Sequence record: PP355091.1
Length of the DNA stretch: 64,000 nt
Direction: 5' to 3' (one strand)
From: Escherichia phage 235Ecol030PP
Part shown: positions 12 to 57,454 of the stretch, one piece after another
Layout: each line of letters starts with the position of its first letter
Position numbering within the stretch: the first letter of the stretch is position 1
Made by a program: the position numbers and the translations under genes
The notes under the pieces: model-generated
What the model was told of the DNA's origin: nothing
Databases searched by the model: none
What the model saw: only the letters and a program-made list of their open reading frames with translations

Positions 12-2189
12 TTAGGCCGCAAGGGCCTTCATAGTTTTAGCGATTTGGGAAACTTCATCATCACTTAAAGAACTGCGATATCCGATGAAGTCGGAAACAA
101 TACGGAATTTCTTGGTAAACTCAGCAACCATTTTATCACTGTTTTTTGAAGCATTATTTGATAATACATCAAAAAGATTAGTTACTGTCCAGATGTCATG
201 ACCAATGGTATCTTTTCCACCATTAAAATATACACCGCGCAATGAACTAACTATATTAGCGAGTCGTGTATATTCTTCAGAAACTTCATCTGTACTGAAG
301 TACTTCATCATAAAATCTAGTTCAGGATACTTGATAATTTTATCAATATATCGTTGAGCTGAACTTGAATAACCTACATACTTATCATAATCTACATCAT
401 CAAAAGCATCTACATATAAATCACGCAAAGCTTCAAAAATACATTGGCACTGACCGAGTTCTTTTACCTTTTTCTGCAAAAGCGGACGAATAACATAAAA
501 TTCATTAATGCCAATAAGATTAGCCATACGAATCAAAATATTCATAGATGGATGACAAAGAGATGTAGTACCATCCATAGAGAAAATATCAGAACGATGC
601 ATATACGCTACATACCCAGTAATTTCATCTGCTTCTGATGTAAGCGTAAATAATTCCTCTTTTTCCCAGCGCCCGTCTTTAATTTCAAACTTAAATGCTG
701 TAGCAGCTTTAGGACGAGGAGCTTTACTTTTAACTACCTTTGGAATATAGCTTTTAACTAAAGCTTCAATTTCTGACAAATAATGAATGTTAACTTCATC
801 ACTTTCAAACATTGCCATAATATCAGGAAGCAAATCAATCTGCGATTCTACTTCTGGGTTAATAAACAGAAGACGCTCATTGTGATGAATATTCAAAGTG
901 TTATTAAATTCACTATCATCTAACGCATGTGCTAATCCACGGACAATATTAACACGATTTTTAATATTATCAATAACGATATTAATTTTTGTTGTATTAA
1001 TACCAAACAGACGATAACTTGATGCAACGGCTGAAGTTTCATGACTTTGCTTAATGCGCTTCAGTCGAGGGTCAAGATTTACTTCATACACAACCCCTGC
1101 ATTACATAACTTACTGTCAGGTTCAAACATGCTCTGCATCTTTTTATATGACAGATTTTTAGTCGTGAATTTGACTGAATTGCTAATCATATAATCTCGA
1201 GCAGAATACCCCATCTTCATCAATTCACGATATGTGTGACGAGGAGATGTAGATTCTTTAAATCGTTTTACATCTTCATTAAATGCTTTCTCACTAAGCT
1301 CTTTAACTCGTTCAATAATATTTTTACGAGTACGATCATCCAGTGAAAGAGCTTCACGTGATGGAGCAATATCAAGTGAACCCATTGGAAACTTAATGTA
1401 ATTCACTTCATTGCGAATGCTTAGCCAGTTACGGTCTCTAATAACACCATCGATAGGATAAACAATACCGCCGTAGATAGCATATAATCCGCCACGATCA
1501 GGCCAGTATCTTTCTGGATTTACACCATAATAATCATCAAAATCCGGAAAATAATCAATTTCGCGGTCAAGACCATTAATGATAGCCAAATCTTTGAACG
1601 GTCGCATGATATAAGAAACTTCATAAGCAAAGTTTCTAAAGTCTTTTTCTTCAACTGGAACTACGATTTCAATACCAGTTTTATCATCTGGACCCATTTC
1701 TTTTACGAATGTAGGTTTAATCTGTGGACCATCACCATCCATGTAAGCTACATAACCACGAATTTCACCTTTATGATACGAAGTAATACTAAACGTATCA
1801 GTATAACTAAACGGAGATTTAGAACCTAAACCAAATCCGCCAATGAAATCGTTAGATTCAGCCTTAGATGAACTGAAGTATGAATTATACAACCCAGGAG
1901 AATTATCATCACCCTGAATATCAAAATCACTCATACCCGGACCAAAATCTCGGCAAACAAATCGTGGATCTAAACGTCCAGGAACTTGTATGATAAATTT
2001 TTCAGGATTTCCATTGAGAGCATGGGCATCAATCATGTTGGTAATTAATTCACGGACTACTGCGCGAATCTTGTTTGTATACAAATCAGATGATAGAATT
2101 TTAAATACTTTAGGAGATGCTGTGATGCTAAATGCTTTTGATTTAGAACCATTACCAAGAATTGTTTCTTTTTCAGTGGTGATAATCAT
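12..2189 (-). CDS. rIIA: rIIA-like protein, 725 aa
   Basis: 725-aa ORF with GHKL/Bergerat-like N-terminal segment ([10 protein letters not shown]); size and position next to topoisomerase gene match T-even rIIA; recalled, not searched. Confidence 0.85.
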
Positions 2190-4278: not shown

Positions 4279-4330
4279 TTATCCTCGTTTGGTTTCGGGA
4301 ATATTATACTCCGGTAATCATAAAGTTAAA

Positions 4331-4342
4331 GGCCCGAAGGCC
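4331..4342 (-). other. UUCG-tetraloop hairpin upstream of the topoisomerase gene
   Basis: GGCC-UUCG-GGCC. Confidence 0.5.
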
Positions 4343-4344
4343 TT

Positions 4345-4605
4345 TTATTTAAAACGAATAGTTGAATCCTTAAAGAACAGCCCAGAACATACTGTTCCTT
4401 CTACTTTCTGCCCGGTAGGTCCAATAGCACGAAATCCAGTATGTTGGAAATCATTTTCAGAGCAACCGAGCCAGTTATATCCAGTGATTTCAATATTAGT
4501 AAAACCACTTGAAGACAAAACTTTGGTTGCATTATCAGCATCAGTACATCCTGCTAAAGACACTGCTAATACTAATGCTGCAATAGAACGATTAACATAT
4601 TTCAT
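4345..4605 (-). CDS. putative lipoprotein, 86 aa
   Basis: N-terminal signal peptide with lipobox (LAGC). Confidence 0.6.
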   Translation of the reverse strand: MKYVNRSIAALVLAVSLAGCTDADNATKVLSSSGFTNIEITGYNWLGCSENDFQHTGFRAIGPTGQKVEGTVCSGLFFKDSTIRFK

Positions 4606-14500: not shown

Positions 14501-14525
14501 AAAAAAAGGACTCCCGAAGGAGTCC
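14501..14525 (-). terminator. rho-independent terminator after soc
   Basis: GGACUCC-UUCG-GGAGUCC hairpin followed by U7 on the minus-strand RNA. Confidence 0.7.
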
Positions 14526-14533
14526 TTGAATTA

Positions 14534-19178: not shown

Positions 19179-19208
19179 ACTATACCATAGTCTTGTCAGC
19201 TTGTAAAC
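19179..19208 (-). promoter_or_regulatory. T4-type early promoter upstream of the 60-aa dmd-position gene
   Basis: GTTTAC-18nt-TATAGT with TGG. Confidence 0.65.
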
Positions 19209-20635
19209 TAAAATTTTAATTCATTTGCCAAAGCATCTAACTGAGCTCGAGTCGATTCATTTCTTTGATAGCGATTCTGTTCAGCTTGTATCTGTTGTGA
19301 ACCTGCTACTTCATTCACTTCAGTTGGAGTAGAATCTTGTTCAATTTCTACCCATTTCTGATTTCCTTTTTGAACACCCATCAAAAACTTATTCCACTTA
19401 TTCTTATCACCATATCGTGATTTGATTTGCTTAATGAGTTGTTGTTCAGCAGCTGCTAGCTCCTCGGTTTCAATGACCGCAAGCATAAAATCAGCTGTTG
19501 CTGGAAGACCAGCAGATTCTGCAATATCGCTCATGTTAACATCGGAAGAGTCCCAAGCTTGTTTACCAACCTGTGCTGCAGTCCAAAGAACAGTTTCGGT
19601 TTCAACAGCCAGAGCACGCAATTCCTCTGCAATAGCTTTAACAGTTGTGTAACTATTTTCTGAATAAACTCTAATGCGGCAAGATTTACAAATACCTAGA
19701 TAGTCGACAATAATGATTGTTGGAACAAAATTCTTCTTGAGCTTCAATTCGTTTAAAAGTGATCGAAATGTATTAGCGTCTGCTCCACCAGTAGGATACT
19801 GTTTAACGATTAAACGACCAAGAGTAGATTTCTCACGCCATTTTTCCATTTTTCCTTTATACTCAGCGTAAGAAATATGCCCATCATCAATGTCATCAAG
19901 AGAAACATCAAGCATATTAGCATCAATACGCTTAGCGCAAACTTCTTCAGCCATTTCCATGGAAATGTAAAGAACATTATGTCCGAGCTGTAAATAATCT
20001 GCTGCCAATGAACACAATCCTAATGACTTACCAACGTTAACACCAGCCATTAAAACGTTCAGTGTTCCAGTCTCAGCTCCGCCTTTAGTAATTTTGTTCA
20101 GAATTCTGAGTTTAAATGGAACCTTACGAGCTTTATTCATATAAGATAACCAACGTGCTTCGTAGTCATCCATCCAATCATGACCAACATAGCTATCAAA
20201 TGAAATTGATAATGCCTGGCGCATGATGTCAGGAATAGCACCAACATCCGGCATTTTCTTATTTCGTTTTTCCGGAGGAAGTTCAGCATTGGTTTGAATT
20301 TCGATTATTTTAGACGTAGCATTAAACATCGCCCTTTGCTGAACATATTTTTCTGTTTCTTTTATTAACCAGCTGTGGTCTTCCGGAGAATCAGCTAGTT
20401 TTGAAATAAGTGTTTTTACACCAGAATATTCTGTTTCAGTAAATGAACTATTTTCTAATGCAACATTTAACGCATTAATAGATGGAACGCTATGATACTC
20501 ATTAACATGAGATTTAATTAATTTGAATGTATTTTTAGCTGGACCACTTTCAAAATATTCTGAATCCATATATGGCCAAACTTTTGAAAAATAAGCTTGA
20601 TCAAATATGAGATGAGAAAGAATAATTTCTACCAC
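19208..20635 (-). CDS. 41: replicative DNA helicase (DnaB-like), 475 aa
   Basis: Walker A GVNVGKS, RecA-like core; size matches gp41. Confidence 0.9.
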   Translation of the reverse strand: MVEIILSHLIFDQAYFSKVWPYMDSEYFESGPAKNTFKLIKSHVNEYHSVPSINALNVALENSSFTETEYSGVKTLISKLADSPEDHSWLIKETEKYVQQRAMFNATSKIIEIQTNAELPPEKRNKKMPDVGAIPDIMRQALSISFDSYVGHDWMDDYEARWLSYMNKARKVPFKLRILNKITKGGAETGTLNVLMAGVNVGKSLGLCSLAADYLQLGHNVLYISMEMAEEVCAKRIDANMLDVSLDDIDDGHISYAEYKGKMEKWREKSTLGRLIVKQYPTGGADANTFRSLLNELKLKKNFVPTIIIVDYLGICKSCRIRVYSENSYTTVKAIAEELRALAVETETVLWTAAQVGKQAWDSSDVNMSDIAESAGLPATADFMLAVIETEELAAAEQQLIKQIKSRYGDKNKWNKFLMGVQKGNQKWVEIEQDSTPTEVNEVAGSQQIQAEQNRYQRNESTRAQLDALANELKF

Positions 20636-20644
20636 ACTTACTCC

Positions 20645-21007
20645 TTAAAAGAATTTAAATTTTTTCTTTGACCTTTTATTAAATGCATCTTGTAGTTGCA
20701 TTGTAATACATTTTTCTACATGAGGAGCTAACTCAGCTTTTCTTTCTTGGTCAAGAACAGCAAAGTCCATTACAACCTTTCCATCAACCCAATCCAGTTT
20801 TGTTACATACACTATATGTGTAGAACCATCTTCTAGTTTAATGACAATCTCCTGGATAACATTTTCCATAGCAGATTTAATTATCTTAAGAGACTCATTA
20901 AAAAGACGTTCTTTTCTTTCTTCTTCCCCCTCCGAAGAGGGGGATTCGTCGATAATTTCTAGATCTAAATCTAAATCATCTTTATTCATTAAATTCTTCC
21001 ATATCAC
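20645..21007 (-). CDS. hypothetical acidic protein, 120 aa (position of T4 gene 40)
   Basis: ORF overlapping the uvsX 3' end; contains a GC hairpin in its 5' region. Confidence 0.5.
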   Translation of the reverse strand: MIWKNLMNKDDLDLDLEIIDESPSSEGEEERKERLFNESLKIIKSAMENVIQEIVIKLEDGSTHIVYVTKLDWVDGKVVMDFAVLDQERKAELAPHVEKCITMQLQDAFNKRSKKKFKFF

Positions 21008-22157
21008 TTAACTGTTCTAGGTCAGTTTCTAAATCAGCTGCTGATTTACTTTTACTTTCTGGAGATTTAAATTTTTCAACCTTTGAGTTAATCAATTCAT
21101 CAACTTCAGCTTCAACAATTTCATTACTATCAATAGCACCTAACTGATAAGCACGTTTAATAGCATCTCGGAATGGTTGATGCTTAAATAAAGGACCCCA
21201 GAATGTAGTACAGTTGGTATCTTTTGCACGCCAAGATTTTTCTTCGCGAATCATCTCGCCGGTTTCTTCATCAAGAAATTCACGAGCATACCAGCCATTT
21301 TTAGGTTTTACTACAAATCCTAATTCTAGCGCCATATCTAACAATCCAGAATAAGGATCGATACCACCGTCAAATTTAACATCAATAAAGAATTTACTTT
21401 TTTCTTTAACGGTACGAGATTTTTCTACATTTAGAACAAATTGATACCCCTGAAGATCAGAACCATCTTTAATTTGACGTTTACCGATAATGAATACAGT
21501 ATCAGCCGAATACATCGGTCCAGTACCACCTCCCATAACTGTTTTACTAAACATTTCTTGTGTTTCGTATGTATGGTTAATAGCAATACATGGAATATTT
21601 TTAGTACTAAAATAGGGAGTTACGATACGAAATAAGCTTTTCATTGTTTTAGCTCTAGTCATATCACTAACAACTTTTTCATTTAAAGCATCTTCAGTTT
21701 CTTTCTTAGAAGCTAAGTTACCAAGTGAATCGATAAAAACGACTACCTTTTCGCCGCGTTCAATTGCATCCAATTGATTAACCATGTCAATACGTAATTG
21801 CTCAAGTGATTGAACCGGAGTATGAATTACTCGTTCTGGATCGACTCCCATAGACCGCAAATAAGCAGGAGTAATACCAAATTCACTATCATAAAACAAA
21901 CATACTGCATCAGGATATTGACGCATGTAAGATGACACCATTGTTAATCCAAAGTTTGATTTAAATGATTTTGATGGACCTGCCAAAATTAACAGACCAG
22001 ATTGCATACCACCAGTAATTTCACCAGAAAGTGCAATATTCATCATAGGAATTTTTGTTCGAACTACATCTTTTTCATTAAAGAATTTAGATGCTGTTAA
22101 TTCTGCAGTCAATTTAGAAGTAGAAGCTTTAATCAAACGAGATTTTAAATCAGACAT
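20982..22157 (-). CDS. uvsX: RecA-like recombinase UvsX, 391 aa
   Basis: RecA fold with Walker A GPSKSFKS; size matches UvsX. Confidence 0.9.
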   Translation of the reverse strand: MSDLKSRLIKASTSKLTAELTASKFFNEKDVVRTKIPMMNIALSGEITGGMQSGLLILAGPSKSFKSNFGLTMVSSYMRQYPDAVCLFYDSEFGITPAYLRSMGVDPERVIHTPVQSLEQLRIDMVNQLDAIERGEKVVVFIDSLGNLASKKETEDALNEKVVSDMTRAKTMKSLFRIVTPYFSTKNIPCIAINHTYETQEMFSKTVMGGGTGPMYSADTVFIIGKRQIKDGSDLQGYQFVLNVEKSRTVKEKSKFFIDVKFDGGIDPYSGLLDMALELGFVVKPKNGWYAREFLDEETGEMIREEKSWRAKDTNCTTFWGPLFKHQPFRDAIKRAYQLGAIDSNEIVEAEVDELINSKVEKFKSPESKSKSAADLETDLEQLSDMEEFNE

Positions 22158-22165
22158 ATAATACC

Positions 22166-22843
22166 TTATAGTAGTGTTCTTGTTCCACGAAATACTTCGA
22201 GCATTCTTGCATAAGATTTATTTGGAAATCCAGCTTCAATTGCTAATTTTTTAAGCTTAATAGCACCGGGTTTTCCAGAGTTTTCCCATATTTCTTTAAT
22301 CTTTTCAATGTTATCCCACATTATTGGGTCACGTTTATGTGATGGTTTATTTCTATTATAACCATATGGATTATTAAGCAAAGCTTCTTTTCGTTTTGCT
22401 TTAGTTTCTTCTGACTGCTTTTTGCCTAGCTGGGCTTTCCGGCAAACATCACTAAATCCAAGATGTTTTGGTTTTCCTTTTTGAGCTTTTGAAATTTTTT
22501 CTTTGGTTTCTGATGAAACTCTATAACCAATTCTTCTACCACCCTCTCCACCAATTTTTAAATTATAAGTCATAGGATCATTTACCACATCTATTGTTAC
22601 TAATTCTCTTTCAGCATCACGGGCTGATTTAAAATCTTTATAAAACCCAAGAATGCTTAAATTAAAATTTTTCTTACCATACTTTTTCTTGGCTTGTGCT
22701 AATAAAGTTCCTGACCCCATATAACCATCATTTAAATCATCGGTTGAATGAGTTCCATAGTAAATTTTATTATTAACTAAATTAGTTATAACATAAGTAT
22801 AATTATATTTCTTTTCTTTATGTCTTTTCATGTCATTAATCAA
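22166..22843 (-). CDS. GIY-YIG homing endonuclease (Seg-like), 225 aa
   Basis: N-terminal YVITN...KIYYGTH (GIY-YIG), basic NUMOD-like repeats, C-terminal DNA-binding tail. Confidence 0.75.
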   Translation of the reverse strand: MINDMKRHKEKKYNYTYVITNLVNNKIYYGTHSTDDLNDGYMGSGTLLAQAKKKYGKKNFNLSILGFYKDFKSARDAERELVTIDVVNDPMTYNLKIGGEGGRRIGYRVSSETKEKISKAQKGKPKHLGFSDVCRKAQLGKKQSEETKAKRKEALLNNPYGYNRNKPSHKRDPIMWDNIEKIKEIWENSGKPGAIKLKKLAIEAGFPNKSYARMLEVFRGTRTLL

Positions 22844-23684
22844 CTGCTATTGGATGAATAGCATTAAACTTATGAAATGCTTCTGATTTTTCTTTACGCG
22901 AAACGCACATGCGAAGAACCTTTAGTGGTTCATCTTCTTCACCCAACGATTTTCGTTTTTCAATATTAGAAGTTTTCCAACGAGCTTGCTCTGGAAACTC
23001 TCTATTGATTTGTTCAAGCGCTCTATTATGTTTAGAATTACTACGAATTGAACTACACCCACCGGGAGCGTGTGATTTTCCAGATACAACCAGATATTTG
23101 AACAAAGCCAAATGTGGATAACCTTGATTAATTAAATTGAGAAATGCATACATATCTTCACATAAATCAATTTTTCCATACCCAATTTGTTCTGTCGTAA
23201 GTTTTCCGAGGTCATACCATGTATTCGTGAATCCATATGAATTTTCACGATAATTACCCCAAGATGAAGTAATTTTAAAAATAGGTAGACGAGCATGACC
23301 GTGATAATACCCGCAATCCATGGCATCTTCAACATATTGAATCAATTCATAGAACTGTTCACGAGTTAATTGATTAATTTTATCTACGCGCCGTTTATCG
23401 TCTCTCTTTCGTATTGAACTCATACGAATAGTAGTATCATCATCAATCATCCATATTCGTTGACCTGCATACATATCAGTAATTGCTTTACGAGTACCGG
23501 AAATTCCATTAACATCATCAGGAATAGTTACAATTTTAGCTCTAGACCCATAGGCATCATAATAAGCTTTTTCTTCATGTTCACGCACTACAATATGGGG
23601 TTCATAATCAATCGGAAACATATCAAGGGCAGAAACTGCCCCTACACGTTGATAGCTCGGAATTACGAATTGAATCATTTCCAC
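22836..23684 (-). CDS. GT-A-fold glycosyltransferase, 282 aa (at the beta-gt locus)
   Basis: N-terminal VIPSYQR and DxD-like IWMIDDD; does not match my recollection of T4 beta-gt (351 aa). Confidence 0.5.
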   Translation of the reverse strand: MEMIQFVIPSYQRVGAVSALDMFPIDYEPHIVVREHEEKAYYDAYGSRAKIVTIPDDVNGISGTRKAITDMYAGQRIWMIDDDTTIRMSSIRKRDDKRRVDKINQLTREQFYELIQYVEDAMDCGYYHGHARLPIFKITSSWGNYRENSYGFTNTWYDLGKLTTEQIGYGKIDLCEDMYAFLNLINQGYPHLALFKYLVVSGKSHAPGGCSSIRSNSKHNRALEQINREFPEQARWKTSNIEKRKSLGEEDEPLKVLRMCVSRKEKSEAFHKFNAIHPIAVD

Positions 23685-30532: not shown

Positions 30533-30565
30533 AATTTCCTCATTCAAGTTTTAGTGTAAATTATA

Positions 30566-30583
30566 AAGGGCCGAAGCCCTTTA
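30566..30583 (-). other. intercistronic UUCG-tetraloop hairpin between genes 45 and 44
   Basis: AAAGGGC-UUCG-GCCCUUU on minus-strand RNA. Confidence 0.6.
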
Positions 30584-31270
30584 TTAAAAATCGTGGGTAG
30601 AATCAGCTTCAAGAGCTACCACATAATTCGCGTGTTCACCTTCAAATTTAGCAGCACCTTGTTTACCTTTTGCCCAGAGCAGAAGTTTATAATTTCCTGG
30701 TTGCATTTTCATATTTGCCATATTGATAATGAAATTAAATGTATTTTCACCATCATAATCACCAAGAGTCAAAGAATATTTAACACGGGTCAGAGCAGAA
30801 TCTTCTACTTTATTAAAACCGTTAATTACGATTTTACCTTCTTTTACCGTGATAGCAATTGTATCAATTTGCAGACCACGAGATACACGCAACAGTTGTT
30901 GAAGGTCTTCAGCTTTAATTTCAGTAACAACAGATGCTACCGGGAATGGAATTGGTTTATTAGGAGCAACTACTGTACTCGGATCGGCTGCTGGCCAAAA
31001 AATTGTTGAGCGGGCATCAGCAATTTTAATATTTCCATCTTCTGACTGGGAAATTTCTGCATCATCATTAACTAGCGACAGAATACCGAGAAAACCGTTC
31101 AAATCGTAAATTGCTACATCAAAATCAATAACGTCAGAAATATTTGCTTCCGCATAAGTTGTACCATTAACTGCGCGAGTCATAATAAATTGACCGGATT
31201 TAAGCATAATACCAGAGTTAATAGTAGCGAAATTTTTCAAAATATTCAGTGTATCTTTAGACAGTTTCAT
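30584..31270 (-). CDS. 45: sliding clamp, 228 aa
   Basis: size 228 aa, position upstream of 44. Confidence 0.85.
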   Translation of the reverse strand: MKLSKDTLNILKNFATINSGIMLKSGQFIMTRAVNGTTYAEANISDVIDFDVAIYDLNGFLGILSLVNDDAEISQSEDGNIKIADARSTIFWPAADPSTVVAPNKPIPFPVASVVTEIKAEDLQQLLRVSRGLQIDTIAITVKEGKIVINGFNKVEDSALTRVKYSLTLGDYDGENTFNFIINMANMKMQPGNYKLLLWAKGKQGAAKFEGEHANYVVALEADSTHDF

Positions 31271-35113: not shown

Positions 35114-35265
35114 ATATCAAGAACCGTCATTGAAATGCAAAATAAAATTATTGAAATAAATCCATCTGGAGTGCTAAAGAACCCAATCCAACATGCTCTA
35201 GCAAATAGATAGAATGCAAGAAAAAGTATCACATATCCAAGAAATATCATTATATCAAACTCCAT
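35110..35265 (-). CDS. small hydrophobic membrane protein, 51 aa
   Basis: hand-translated; stop overlaps gene 47 start (ATGA); two hydrophobic segments. Confidence 0.4.
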   Translation of the reverse strand: MEFDIMIFLGYVILFLAFYLFARACWIGFFSTPDGFISIILFCISMTVLDI

Positions 35266-35274
35266 ATAAAGCTA

Positions 35275-35292
35275 AAGGGCCGAAGCCCTTTA
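35275..35292 (-). other. UUCG-tetraloop hairpin overlapping the a-gt stop
   Basis: same AAAGGGCUUCGGCCCUUU element as at 30566. Confidence 0.6.
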
Positions 35293-36516: not shown

Positions 36517-36542
36517 ATTTTACCAAAAAAATTTATAAAGCA
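36517..36542 (-). promoter_or_regulatory. MotA-box middle promoter candidate upstream of a-gt
   Basis: minus-strand TGCTTTA-13nt-TAAAAT. Confidence 0.4.
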
Positions 36543-36737
36543 ATATAGGAGCCGAAGCTCCTATCCACATAATACGTCATACAGAGGCTCGTTAGAACTT
36601 TTAAATTTTATGCGCTTATATGTTATAGTTCCTTCTGCTTTAGCTTTATCGTGAGCCTCTTTAAAGCGTCTCATCATTTCCTCTTTAGAGGAACGAATTT
36701 TATTATAATCTATTTCAGAAGTCTGGGTGTTCATCTT

Positions 36738-38877: not shown

Positions 38878-38929
38878 ATATTATCCTCAATTACGTTAAA
38901 ATTTTATTATCCAAAAAGGGCCGAAGCCC

Positions 38930-39130
38930 TTAGCTAAACTTTTTGGCACCCTTCCAGCCTTCATACATCATTGCGGCTGATATTAATATTGCTCCTGAGC
39001 AACTTGAATATTTGTGATTCCAAAACCAGTTCAGAAAAACTTCGTCATCAATACCTTGGGCTATCATATTTTCAAAGAACTGACGACGAGCTTCAGCAAT
39101 TCGCTGCGATAATTTAGATTCAGGATTCAT
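38930..39130 (-). CDS. hypothetical protein, 66 aa
   Basis: ORF following UUCG hairpin. Confidence 0.45.
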   Translation of the reverse strand: MNPESKLSQRIAEARRQFFENMIAQGIDDEVFLNWFWNHKYSSCSGAILISAAMMYEGWKGAKKFS

Positions 39131-53420: not shown

Positions 53421-53448
53421 AAATAAAAAAGGGAGCCCGAAGGCTCCC
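53421..53448 (-). terminator. terminator after the nucleotidyltransferase-fold gene
   Basis: GGGAGCC-UUCG-GGCUCCC hairpin followed by U-rich tract. Confidence 0.65.
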
Positions 53449-53450
53449 TA

Positions 53451-57432: not shown

Positions 57433-57454
57433 AAAAAGTCTCCCGAAGGAGACT
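57433..57454 (-). terminator. terminator hairpin
   Basis: AGUCUCC-UUCG-GGAGACU followed by U5. Confidence 0.6.

Follow-up and report, generated by a model that had tools for sequence, protein, structure and literature searches.

The Escherichia phage 235Ecol030PP (PP355091.1) carries a short, GC-rich RNA hairpin just downstream of its recombinase gene uvsX, at a point where the next gene, gene 40, is already being encoded. We studied it within a stretch of 64,000 nucleotides of the phage DNA, called the window throughout. The structure exists, it is exceptional for this genome, and its pairing is under selection at a fixed position. Judged by comparison of the sequences of many relatives, the hairpin is clearly real, non-random, and functional at the level of RNA, and the same comparison indicates that selection is acting on the base pairing of the RNA and not on the encoded peptide. 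We think it fairly probable that it is a functional mRNA structure of the uvsX-40-41 unit, one that would define and protect the 3' end of a uvsX-only RNA by acting as a barrier to exonucleases. The exonuclease-barrier mechanism and its effect on expression ratios are what we infer for this structure. The hairpin is almost certainly already known, both through a stem-loop reported for phage T4 and as a member of the well-known T4 class of cUUCGg hairpins. What is added here is comparative, namely compensatory synonymous changes, swapped arms, and a shift between coding and intergenic placement, a pattern that suggests an ancestral 3' element of uvsX that the N-terminal part of gene 40 has overprinted.

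The window belongs to a Tequatrovirus isolate distinct from T4, and its uvsX-40-41 region is 98.8% identical to that of T4 and 99.5% identical to that of Shigella phage SH7. All three genes are on the minus strand (Table 1). The ATG of gene 40 overlaps the TAA stop codon of uvsX (20982..20984) as ATGAATAA (20982..20989). The first-pass annotation had put the hairpin within the 5' part of a 120-aa ORF that overlaps the 3' end of uvsX, and the placement is right, the encoded peptide at this point being ESPSSEGEEE. The 120-aa ORF exists, starting from a GTG at 21007, but it is a purely mechanical reading frame, and the T4 records annotate the 114-aa protein from the internal ATG. The gene 40 product, gp40, matches Pfam PF11113 (Phage_head_chap; E = 7.5e-29, 100 bits against a cut-off of 25) over residues 44-99. 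This domain lies downstream of the hairpin, which spans +46..+65 of the gene 40 ORF, or codons 16-22 (S P S S E G E), and the hairpin codons therefore fall outside the domain, in an acidic and poorly conserved N-terminal tail. The 5' end of the gene (20951..20980, minus strand) consists of GATTTAGAT-type repeats encoding DLDLDL. A related contig (L007) has a 6-nt in-frame deletion in these D/L repeats, a deletion that could be explained by slippage within the stretch separating the uvsX stop codon from the hairpin.

Table 1. Features of the uvsX-40-41 region and further CUUCGG hairpins of the window
Feature	Position	Strand	Description	Basis
uvsX	20982..22157	-	RecA-like recombinase, 391 aa	ORF list, Pfam RecA and T4_UVSX_C, T4 annotation
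Spacer, uvsX stop to hairpin	20945..20981	-	37 nt, encodes acidic D/L repeats (GATTTAGAT units) of the gp40 N-terminus	Sequence
RNA hairpin	20925..20944	-	mRNA 5'-UCCCCCUC-UUCG-GAGGGGGA-3'	Exact match and MFE folds
Hairpin parts	5' arm 20944..20937, UUCG loop 20936..20933, 3' arm 20932..20925	-		Folds
Gene 40	20645..20989	-	Head vertex assembly chaperone, 114 aa from ATG 20989	T4 records, Pfam PF11113, protein alignment
Gene 41	19208..20635	-	Replicative helicase, GTG start	ORF list, T4 annotation
Other eight CUUCGG hairpins	57437..57454, 53430..53449, 38916..38931, 36545..36564, 35273..35292, 30563..30584, 14506..14527, 4328..4345	-	mRNA sense	

Directly upstream of uvsX, where T4 has segA, is a homing-endonuclease ORF with GIY-YIG and NUMOD3 domains (22166..22843, minus strand). 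Next comes an ORF for a TAGT-family glycosyltransferase of 282 aa (22836..23684, minus strand), in place of the 351-aa b-gt of the T4 record. Since this ORF occupies the b-gt position, the DNA glucosylation gene of 235Ecol030PP may be different from that of T4.

The 18-nt sequence CCCCCTCCGAAGAGGGGG has a single exact occurrence in the window, at 20926..20943 on the plus strand, and it was not found in 100 dinucleotide shuffles even with up to two mismatches allowed. The first-pass annotation had this sequence right but gave it as 20909-20926, 17 nt away from its actual place. It also described the loop as CGAA, which is what one reads on the plus strand; the genes are on the minus strand, so the loop in the mRNA is UUCG, closed by a C-G pair. 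In the mRNA sense, the hairpin is U-CCCCCUC-UUCG-GAGGGGG-A, with an extra U-A pair that lengthens the stem from 7 bp to 8 contiguous Watson-Crick pairs, six of which are G-C. Its CTTCGG (20932..20937) is on the minus strand, the sense strand of uvsX, 40, and 41, and the hairpin thus has the features of a cUUCGg tetraloop, with UUCG in the transcribed strand and a C-G loop-closing pair on a Watson-Crick stem. The hyperstable C(UUCG)G tetraloop was first described in T4 mRNA by Tuerk et al. 1988, as recounted in PMC4371310. The gene 40 hairpin shares with that T4 class the UUCG loop, the C-G closing pair, the GC-rich stem, and the location on the sense strand.

At -15.9 kcal/mol, the hairpin 20-mer is the most stable of the short hairpins in the 64-kb window. 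Only two hairpins in the 64 kb have a perfect stem of 7 bp or more that includes six or more G-C pairs, where 0.01 would be expected. The hairpin is present in both the MFE and the centroid structures, in a 96-nt as well as in a 358-nt context. Searching 20500..21300 against Rfam with E values of up to 10 returned only chance-level matches, the best of them with 14-17 bits against gathering thresholds of 38-77 and with E > 4, and no late promoter TATAAATA was found near gene 40.

CTTCGG is frequent in the window as a whole, with 31 copies against 12.1 expected. Nine of the copies form good hairpins (stem of at least 6 bp), all of them on the sense strand. The gene 40 hairpin lies well within a real reading frame, unlike the other eight, which are intergenic and lie on or just after stop codons. 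Four of these eight have U tracts (at 57437, 53430, and 14506, and weakly at 38916) and four do not. Directly 3' of the hairpins at 36545 and 35273 are the sequences ATTGCTTTATAA (36533..36544, minus strand) and GCTTTATATGG (35262..35272, minus strand), which we take to resemble the MotA box of T4 middle promoters. This resemblance suggests hairpin-then-promoter junctions at both places.

The codons in which the gene 40 hairpin is written are the rarest synonymous ones. CCC accounts for 2.4% of Pro codons, TCC and TCG for 5.2% and 6.0% of Ser codons, GGG for 7.2% of Gly codons, and GAG for 15.6% of Glu codons. The hairpin could nevertheless be a coincidental by-product of the peptide SPSSEGE, given that Pro/Ser and Glu/Gly codons are partly complementary and that 11% of the synonymous encodings of the hairpin peptide reach -10 kcal/mol. 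Under the codon usage of the window, however, the probability that ESPSSEGEE would fold as well as it does is 1.75e-5, and the peptide concerned is in the poorly conserved tail outside the Pfam domain. The element could also be a palindrome that works at the DNA level, as a protein-binding site or a cruciform, and the other strand does fold too, at -15.0 kcal/mol. We consider either of these explanations very improbable.

Two stem pairs are made up wholly of third-codon positions, Ser3-Gly3 and Pro3-Glu3. In RB69 and the other Mosigvirus loci, the Pro3-Glu3 pair has changed from C-G to U-A (CCT/GAA), and in a Klebsiella phage the Ser3-Gly3 pair has changed from C-G to U-A (TCT/GGA); in both cases, both changes are synonymous. 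The loop varies among the relatives (UUCG, UCAG, UUUG, GGAA, GAAG), and so does the amino acid encoded there (S, Q, L, E), with the stem being kept. In Gaprivervirus and Dhakavirus, the arms are swapped so that the G-rich arm comes first, and the peptide is EG..PS in place of PS..EG. The order of the peptide thus flips with the arms, and there are also versions of the hairpin that are not coding at all (described below). The coding by-product was rejected on the grounds of codon usage and swapped arms. In the Dhakavirus type, a single pair appears as U-A, U-G, or C-G, with an accompanying Asp-to-Gly replacement. G-U pairs occur in loci L021 and L039. Such G-U pairs, like the UUCG loop, are sensible only in sense-strand RNA, and together with the strand bias of the nine CUUCGG hairpins of the window they point to the element being a sense-strand RNA. 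The DNA-level palindrome was rejected on the strand bias and the G-U pairs.

Sequence conservation within the genus is also higher at the hairpin than beside it. For the 32-nt segment centered on the hairpin, an exact 28-mer is common to 466 Tequatrovirus records, compared with 304 and 69 records for the two neighboring 32-nt segments of gene 40. Covariation within a hairpin type is modest. Pairing is kept in 91.7% of cells for the T4 type, with double changes in two of the eight pairs and a shuffle control of 4/500; for the Dhakavirus type it is kept in 100% of cells, with a double change in one of the seven pairs and a shuffle control of 107/500. Given these modest counts, and the fact that the runs of C and G allow slid registers to pair too, the comparison between types is the stronger evidence.

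That comparison covered 25 non-redundant loci from phage and IMG/VR collections. A hairpin was counted if it had at least six Watson-Crick pairs, at least four of them G-C, and started 40-110 nt upstream of the gp40 motif AM..V.QE. By this measure, 21 of the 25 loci have a hairpin at the equivalent place, or 23 if G-U pairs are allowed, although related loci are phylogenetically non-independent and represent about eight distinct hairpin types. Elsewhere in the same loci (52.6 kb) there are only four such hairpins, or 0.005 per 70 nt. Among the 25 loci, the hairpin is absent only from two Acinetobacter phages, in which the gene order is kept.

The distance between the hairpin and AM..V.QE is 52-54 nt in Tequatrovirus, Mosigvirus, Karamvirus, and Gelderlandvirus, in all of which the hairpin is coding. 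Pseudotevenvirus has the same distance of 52-54 nt, with a shorter gene 40 and with an intergenic hairpin that precedes the ATG by 13-15 nt. Krischvirus, Pseudotevenvirus, and an Aeromonas phage have a different GC hairpin at the equivalent place, which is intergenic in each. The Krischvirus hairpin is AAAGGGGC-UACGU-GCCCCUUU-UUC and has a U tract (UUUUUC follows), and the record of Citrobacter phage CfP1 annotates the equivalent hairpin as a terminator; several of the intergenic homologous hairpins have no U tract. Aeromonas phage Aswh_1 (locus L026) has two GC-rich hairpins with an extra ORF between them, GGGGGGCTTGAACCCCC right after the uvsX stop codon (212..230) and GAGGTGGGAAACCACCTC right before gene 40 (666..683).

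Two of the gene 40 sequences are unusual further downstream. In Yersinia phage phiD1 (HE956711; locus L057, 312..515), gene 40 is annotated with 204 nt, and its 5' region and hairpin are identical to those of the window; the short gene is probably the result of a frameshift or a sequencing error further downstream. In RB69 (NC_004928; locus L002, gene 40 at 1799..2143), gp40 has the internal stretch HISLYYKTSTGLMVKSKWTLQFLTRTE where all other homologues have HIVYVT...DFSTLSE, which looks like a compensating pair of frameshifts or sequencing errors.

It had been proposed that the true start of gene 40 might lie beyond the hairpin. This is not supported in 235Ecol030PP, and a start past the hairpin was rejected because there is no in-frame ATG, GTG, or TTG between the hairpin and Met41. 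A start at Met41 itself would delete the conserved ERLFNESLKIIKS segment. The upstream frame with its stop-overlapping ATG also stays open across genera, with indels in frame. The idea of a downstream start does fit the distant relatives, with gene 40 beginning after the intergenic hairpin in Krischvirus, Pseudotevenvirus, and an Aeromonas phage. These arrangements could be explained by an ancestral intergenic element at the 3' end of uvsX, a terminator or stabilizer, that was absorbed into gene 40 in the Tevenvirinae and some Klebsiella phages when an upstream start overlapping the uvsX stop codon came into use, with the RNA dictating about seven gp40 codons ever since. This history draws on the PS-x-EG or EG-x-PS peptide that goes with the order of the arms, on the replacement of Asp by Gly that goes with a change of pair, and on the spacing of 52-54 nt, which is fixed whether the hairpin is coding or not. 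We hold the chances of its being correct to be about even.

The hairpin sequence is identical in T4, where the region has been studied experimentally. Kim et al. 2025, from the Hinton laboratory, worked with a reporter whose leader was the 358 nt preceding T4 gene 41 (PMC12152347). With reference to Hinton 1989 (J Biol Chem 264:14432 and 14440), they describe an in vivo T4 RNA 3' end located immediately after a stem-loop within those 358 nt (PMC12152347). The T4 stretch corresponds to 20636..20993 of the window, where the cUUCGg hairpin exceeds every other stem-loop in stability by about 5 kcal/mol. Second to it is a bulged one (20730..20767, minus strand, -11.2 kcal/mol), which is located in the 3' half of gene 40 and is the sole alternative for the published structure. 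Because it is the strongest in the 358-nt stretch, the cUUCGg hairpin is almost certainly the published T4 stem-loop, having the same locus, an identical sequence, and in T4 an RNA 3' end (Hinton 1989, via the account in PMC12152347). The window represents another isolate, 98.8% identical to T4 here, and for it we infer the identity of the stem-loop. A terminator-like site is listed by our scan on the opposite (plus) strand at 20722..20742.

The same account gives the region a part in the expression of gene 41. As described there, the level of gene 41 mRNA is affected by RNA ending upstream of the gene, and rho(nusD) hosts have more T4 RNA ending at this 3' end (PMC12152347). The GoF(D25Y) protein is described as restoring the level of RNA that extends into gene 41 and, in the reporter, as raising the amount of RNA carrying the 358-nt region post-transcriptionally, through a longer half-life (PMC12152347). 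The Uzan & Miller review makes no mention of the hairpin site, and our literature search found no cross-genus comparison of the hairpin and nothing usable in T4 3'-end transcriptomics.

The first-pass annotation had suggested that the hairpin could be a signal for RNA processing or attenuation, placed between uvsX and the gene downstream. An RNA signal at this place agrees with the conservation across genera at the RNA level and with the T4 3' end, but a classical attenuator or terminator does not agree with the sequence that follows the stem. The main rival to the exonuclease barrier is nonetheless a leaky intrinsic (Rho-independent) terminator or pause site, at which the polymerase would stop in a fraction of rounds and so attenuate genes 40 and 41. 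Like intrinsic terminators, the hairpin is a GC-rich stem-loop soon after a stop codon. The Krischvirus homologues, with UUUUUC after the stem, look canonical, the CfP1 equivalent is annotated as a terminator, and the T4 3' end is reported right after the stem-loop in this region (PMC12152347). The gene 40 hairpin differs from intrinsic terminators in that its stem runs into AGAAGAAAGAAA instead of a U run (the closest five consecutive U are about 20 nt off), in being within a translated ORF, and in having the essential gene 41 downstream. The missing U tract means that it is not a canonical terminator, and most transcription must pass it, because gene 41 is essential. Our scan for consensus promoters and terminators did not call a terminator at the hairpin, nor did it find a convincing promoter adjoining it, and several of the intergenic homologues are without U tracts as well. 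The effect of GoF(D25Y), as reported, is post-transcriptional (PMC12152347). Taken with these points, a partial terminator seems rather unlikely as the main role of the hairpin.

The hairpin also has features in common with elements that stabilize RNA 3' ends. REP-type stem-loops at 3' ends block PNPase and RNase II and stabilize upstream mRNA in polycistronic transcripts. The uvsX-40-41 unit likewise has a stable stem that separates a highly expressed cistron from the less expressed ones downstream of it, and a 3' end is reported directly after this stem. Between the uvsX stop codon and the hairpin are 37 nt. A terminating ribosome is generally known to reach about 12-15 nt past the stop codon, so the 37-nt spacer would put the stem, stable and downstream of uvsX, beyond the expected reach of a ribosome terminating there. 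The hairpin differs from REP elements in having no sequence relation to them and in being embedded in coding sequence, and its stabilizing effect is putative.

If the hairpin is an exonuclease barrier, transcripts that were cut or had ended prematurely within genes 40 and 41 would be trimmed in the 3' to 5' direction by host exonucleases until these stalled at the base of the stem. The hairpin would in this way define and protect the 3' end of a uvsX-only RNA species, and uvsX message would accumulate relative to 40-41 message, giving a high ratio of UvsX to gp41. Pausing of RNA polymerase or weak termination at the hairpin may make an additional contribution. In the T4-type genera, the N-terminal extension of gene 40 would read through the hairpin, leaving seven gp40 codons dictated by RNA structure. 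Ribosomes translating gene 40 would melt the hairpin, which could therefore act as a barrier only if translation of gene 40 were sparse, a putative prerequisite.

The location of the hairpin 45 nt into gene 40, at a place that ribosomes must pass, also raises the possibility that it modulates translation, by slowing ribosomes and keeping gp40 low early in infection or by coupling translation to the fate of the downstream RNA. Its position within the ORF and the weak Shine-Dalgarno sequence of gene 40 would fit such a modulator. The hairpin is outside the initiation footprint, however, and elongating ribosomes normally unwind such stems. A primary role in gene 40 translation is unlikely because genera with an intergenic, untranslated hairpin keep it at the same position, and we regard a translational modulator as improbable.

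Finally, the hairpin could be a site of processing by an endonuclease, for example by RegB, which cuts at GGAG. A GGAG tetranucleotide does occur at the junction of loop and stem, in UUCGGAGG. Its bases are paired within a very stable stem and do not form a Shine-Dalgarno sequence, and homologues with GAAGGGG or GCCCCC have no GGAG yet keep the hairpin. Since the GGAG is base-paired and not conserved, a RegB site, or endonuclease processing in general, is highly doubtful as an explanation.

An exonuclease barrier at the 3' end of the uvsX message remains the role that we favor. The hairpin probably helps to set the amounts of UvsX and gp41 message that are obtained from a single transcription unit, and it is located in the stretch of RNA through which the old T4 puzzle of rho(nusD) and goF acts. 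The comparative pattern offers a ready design for synonymous mutants in which the stem is broken and then restored. The element is not of a new kind; it is a small but clear example of an RNA structure that constrains, and has apparently shaped, the sequence of a protein.
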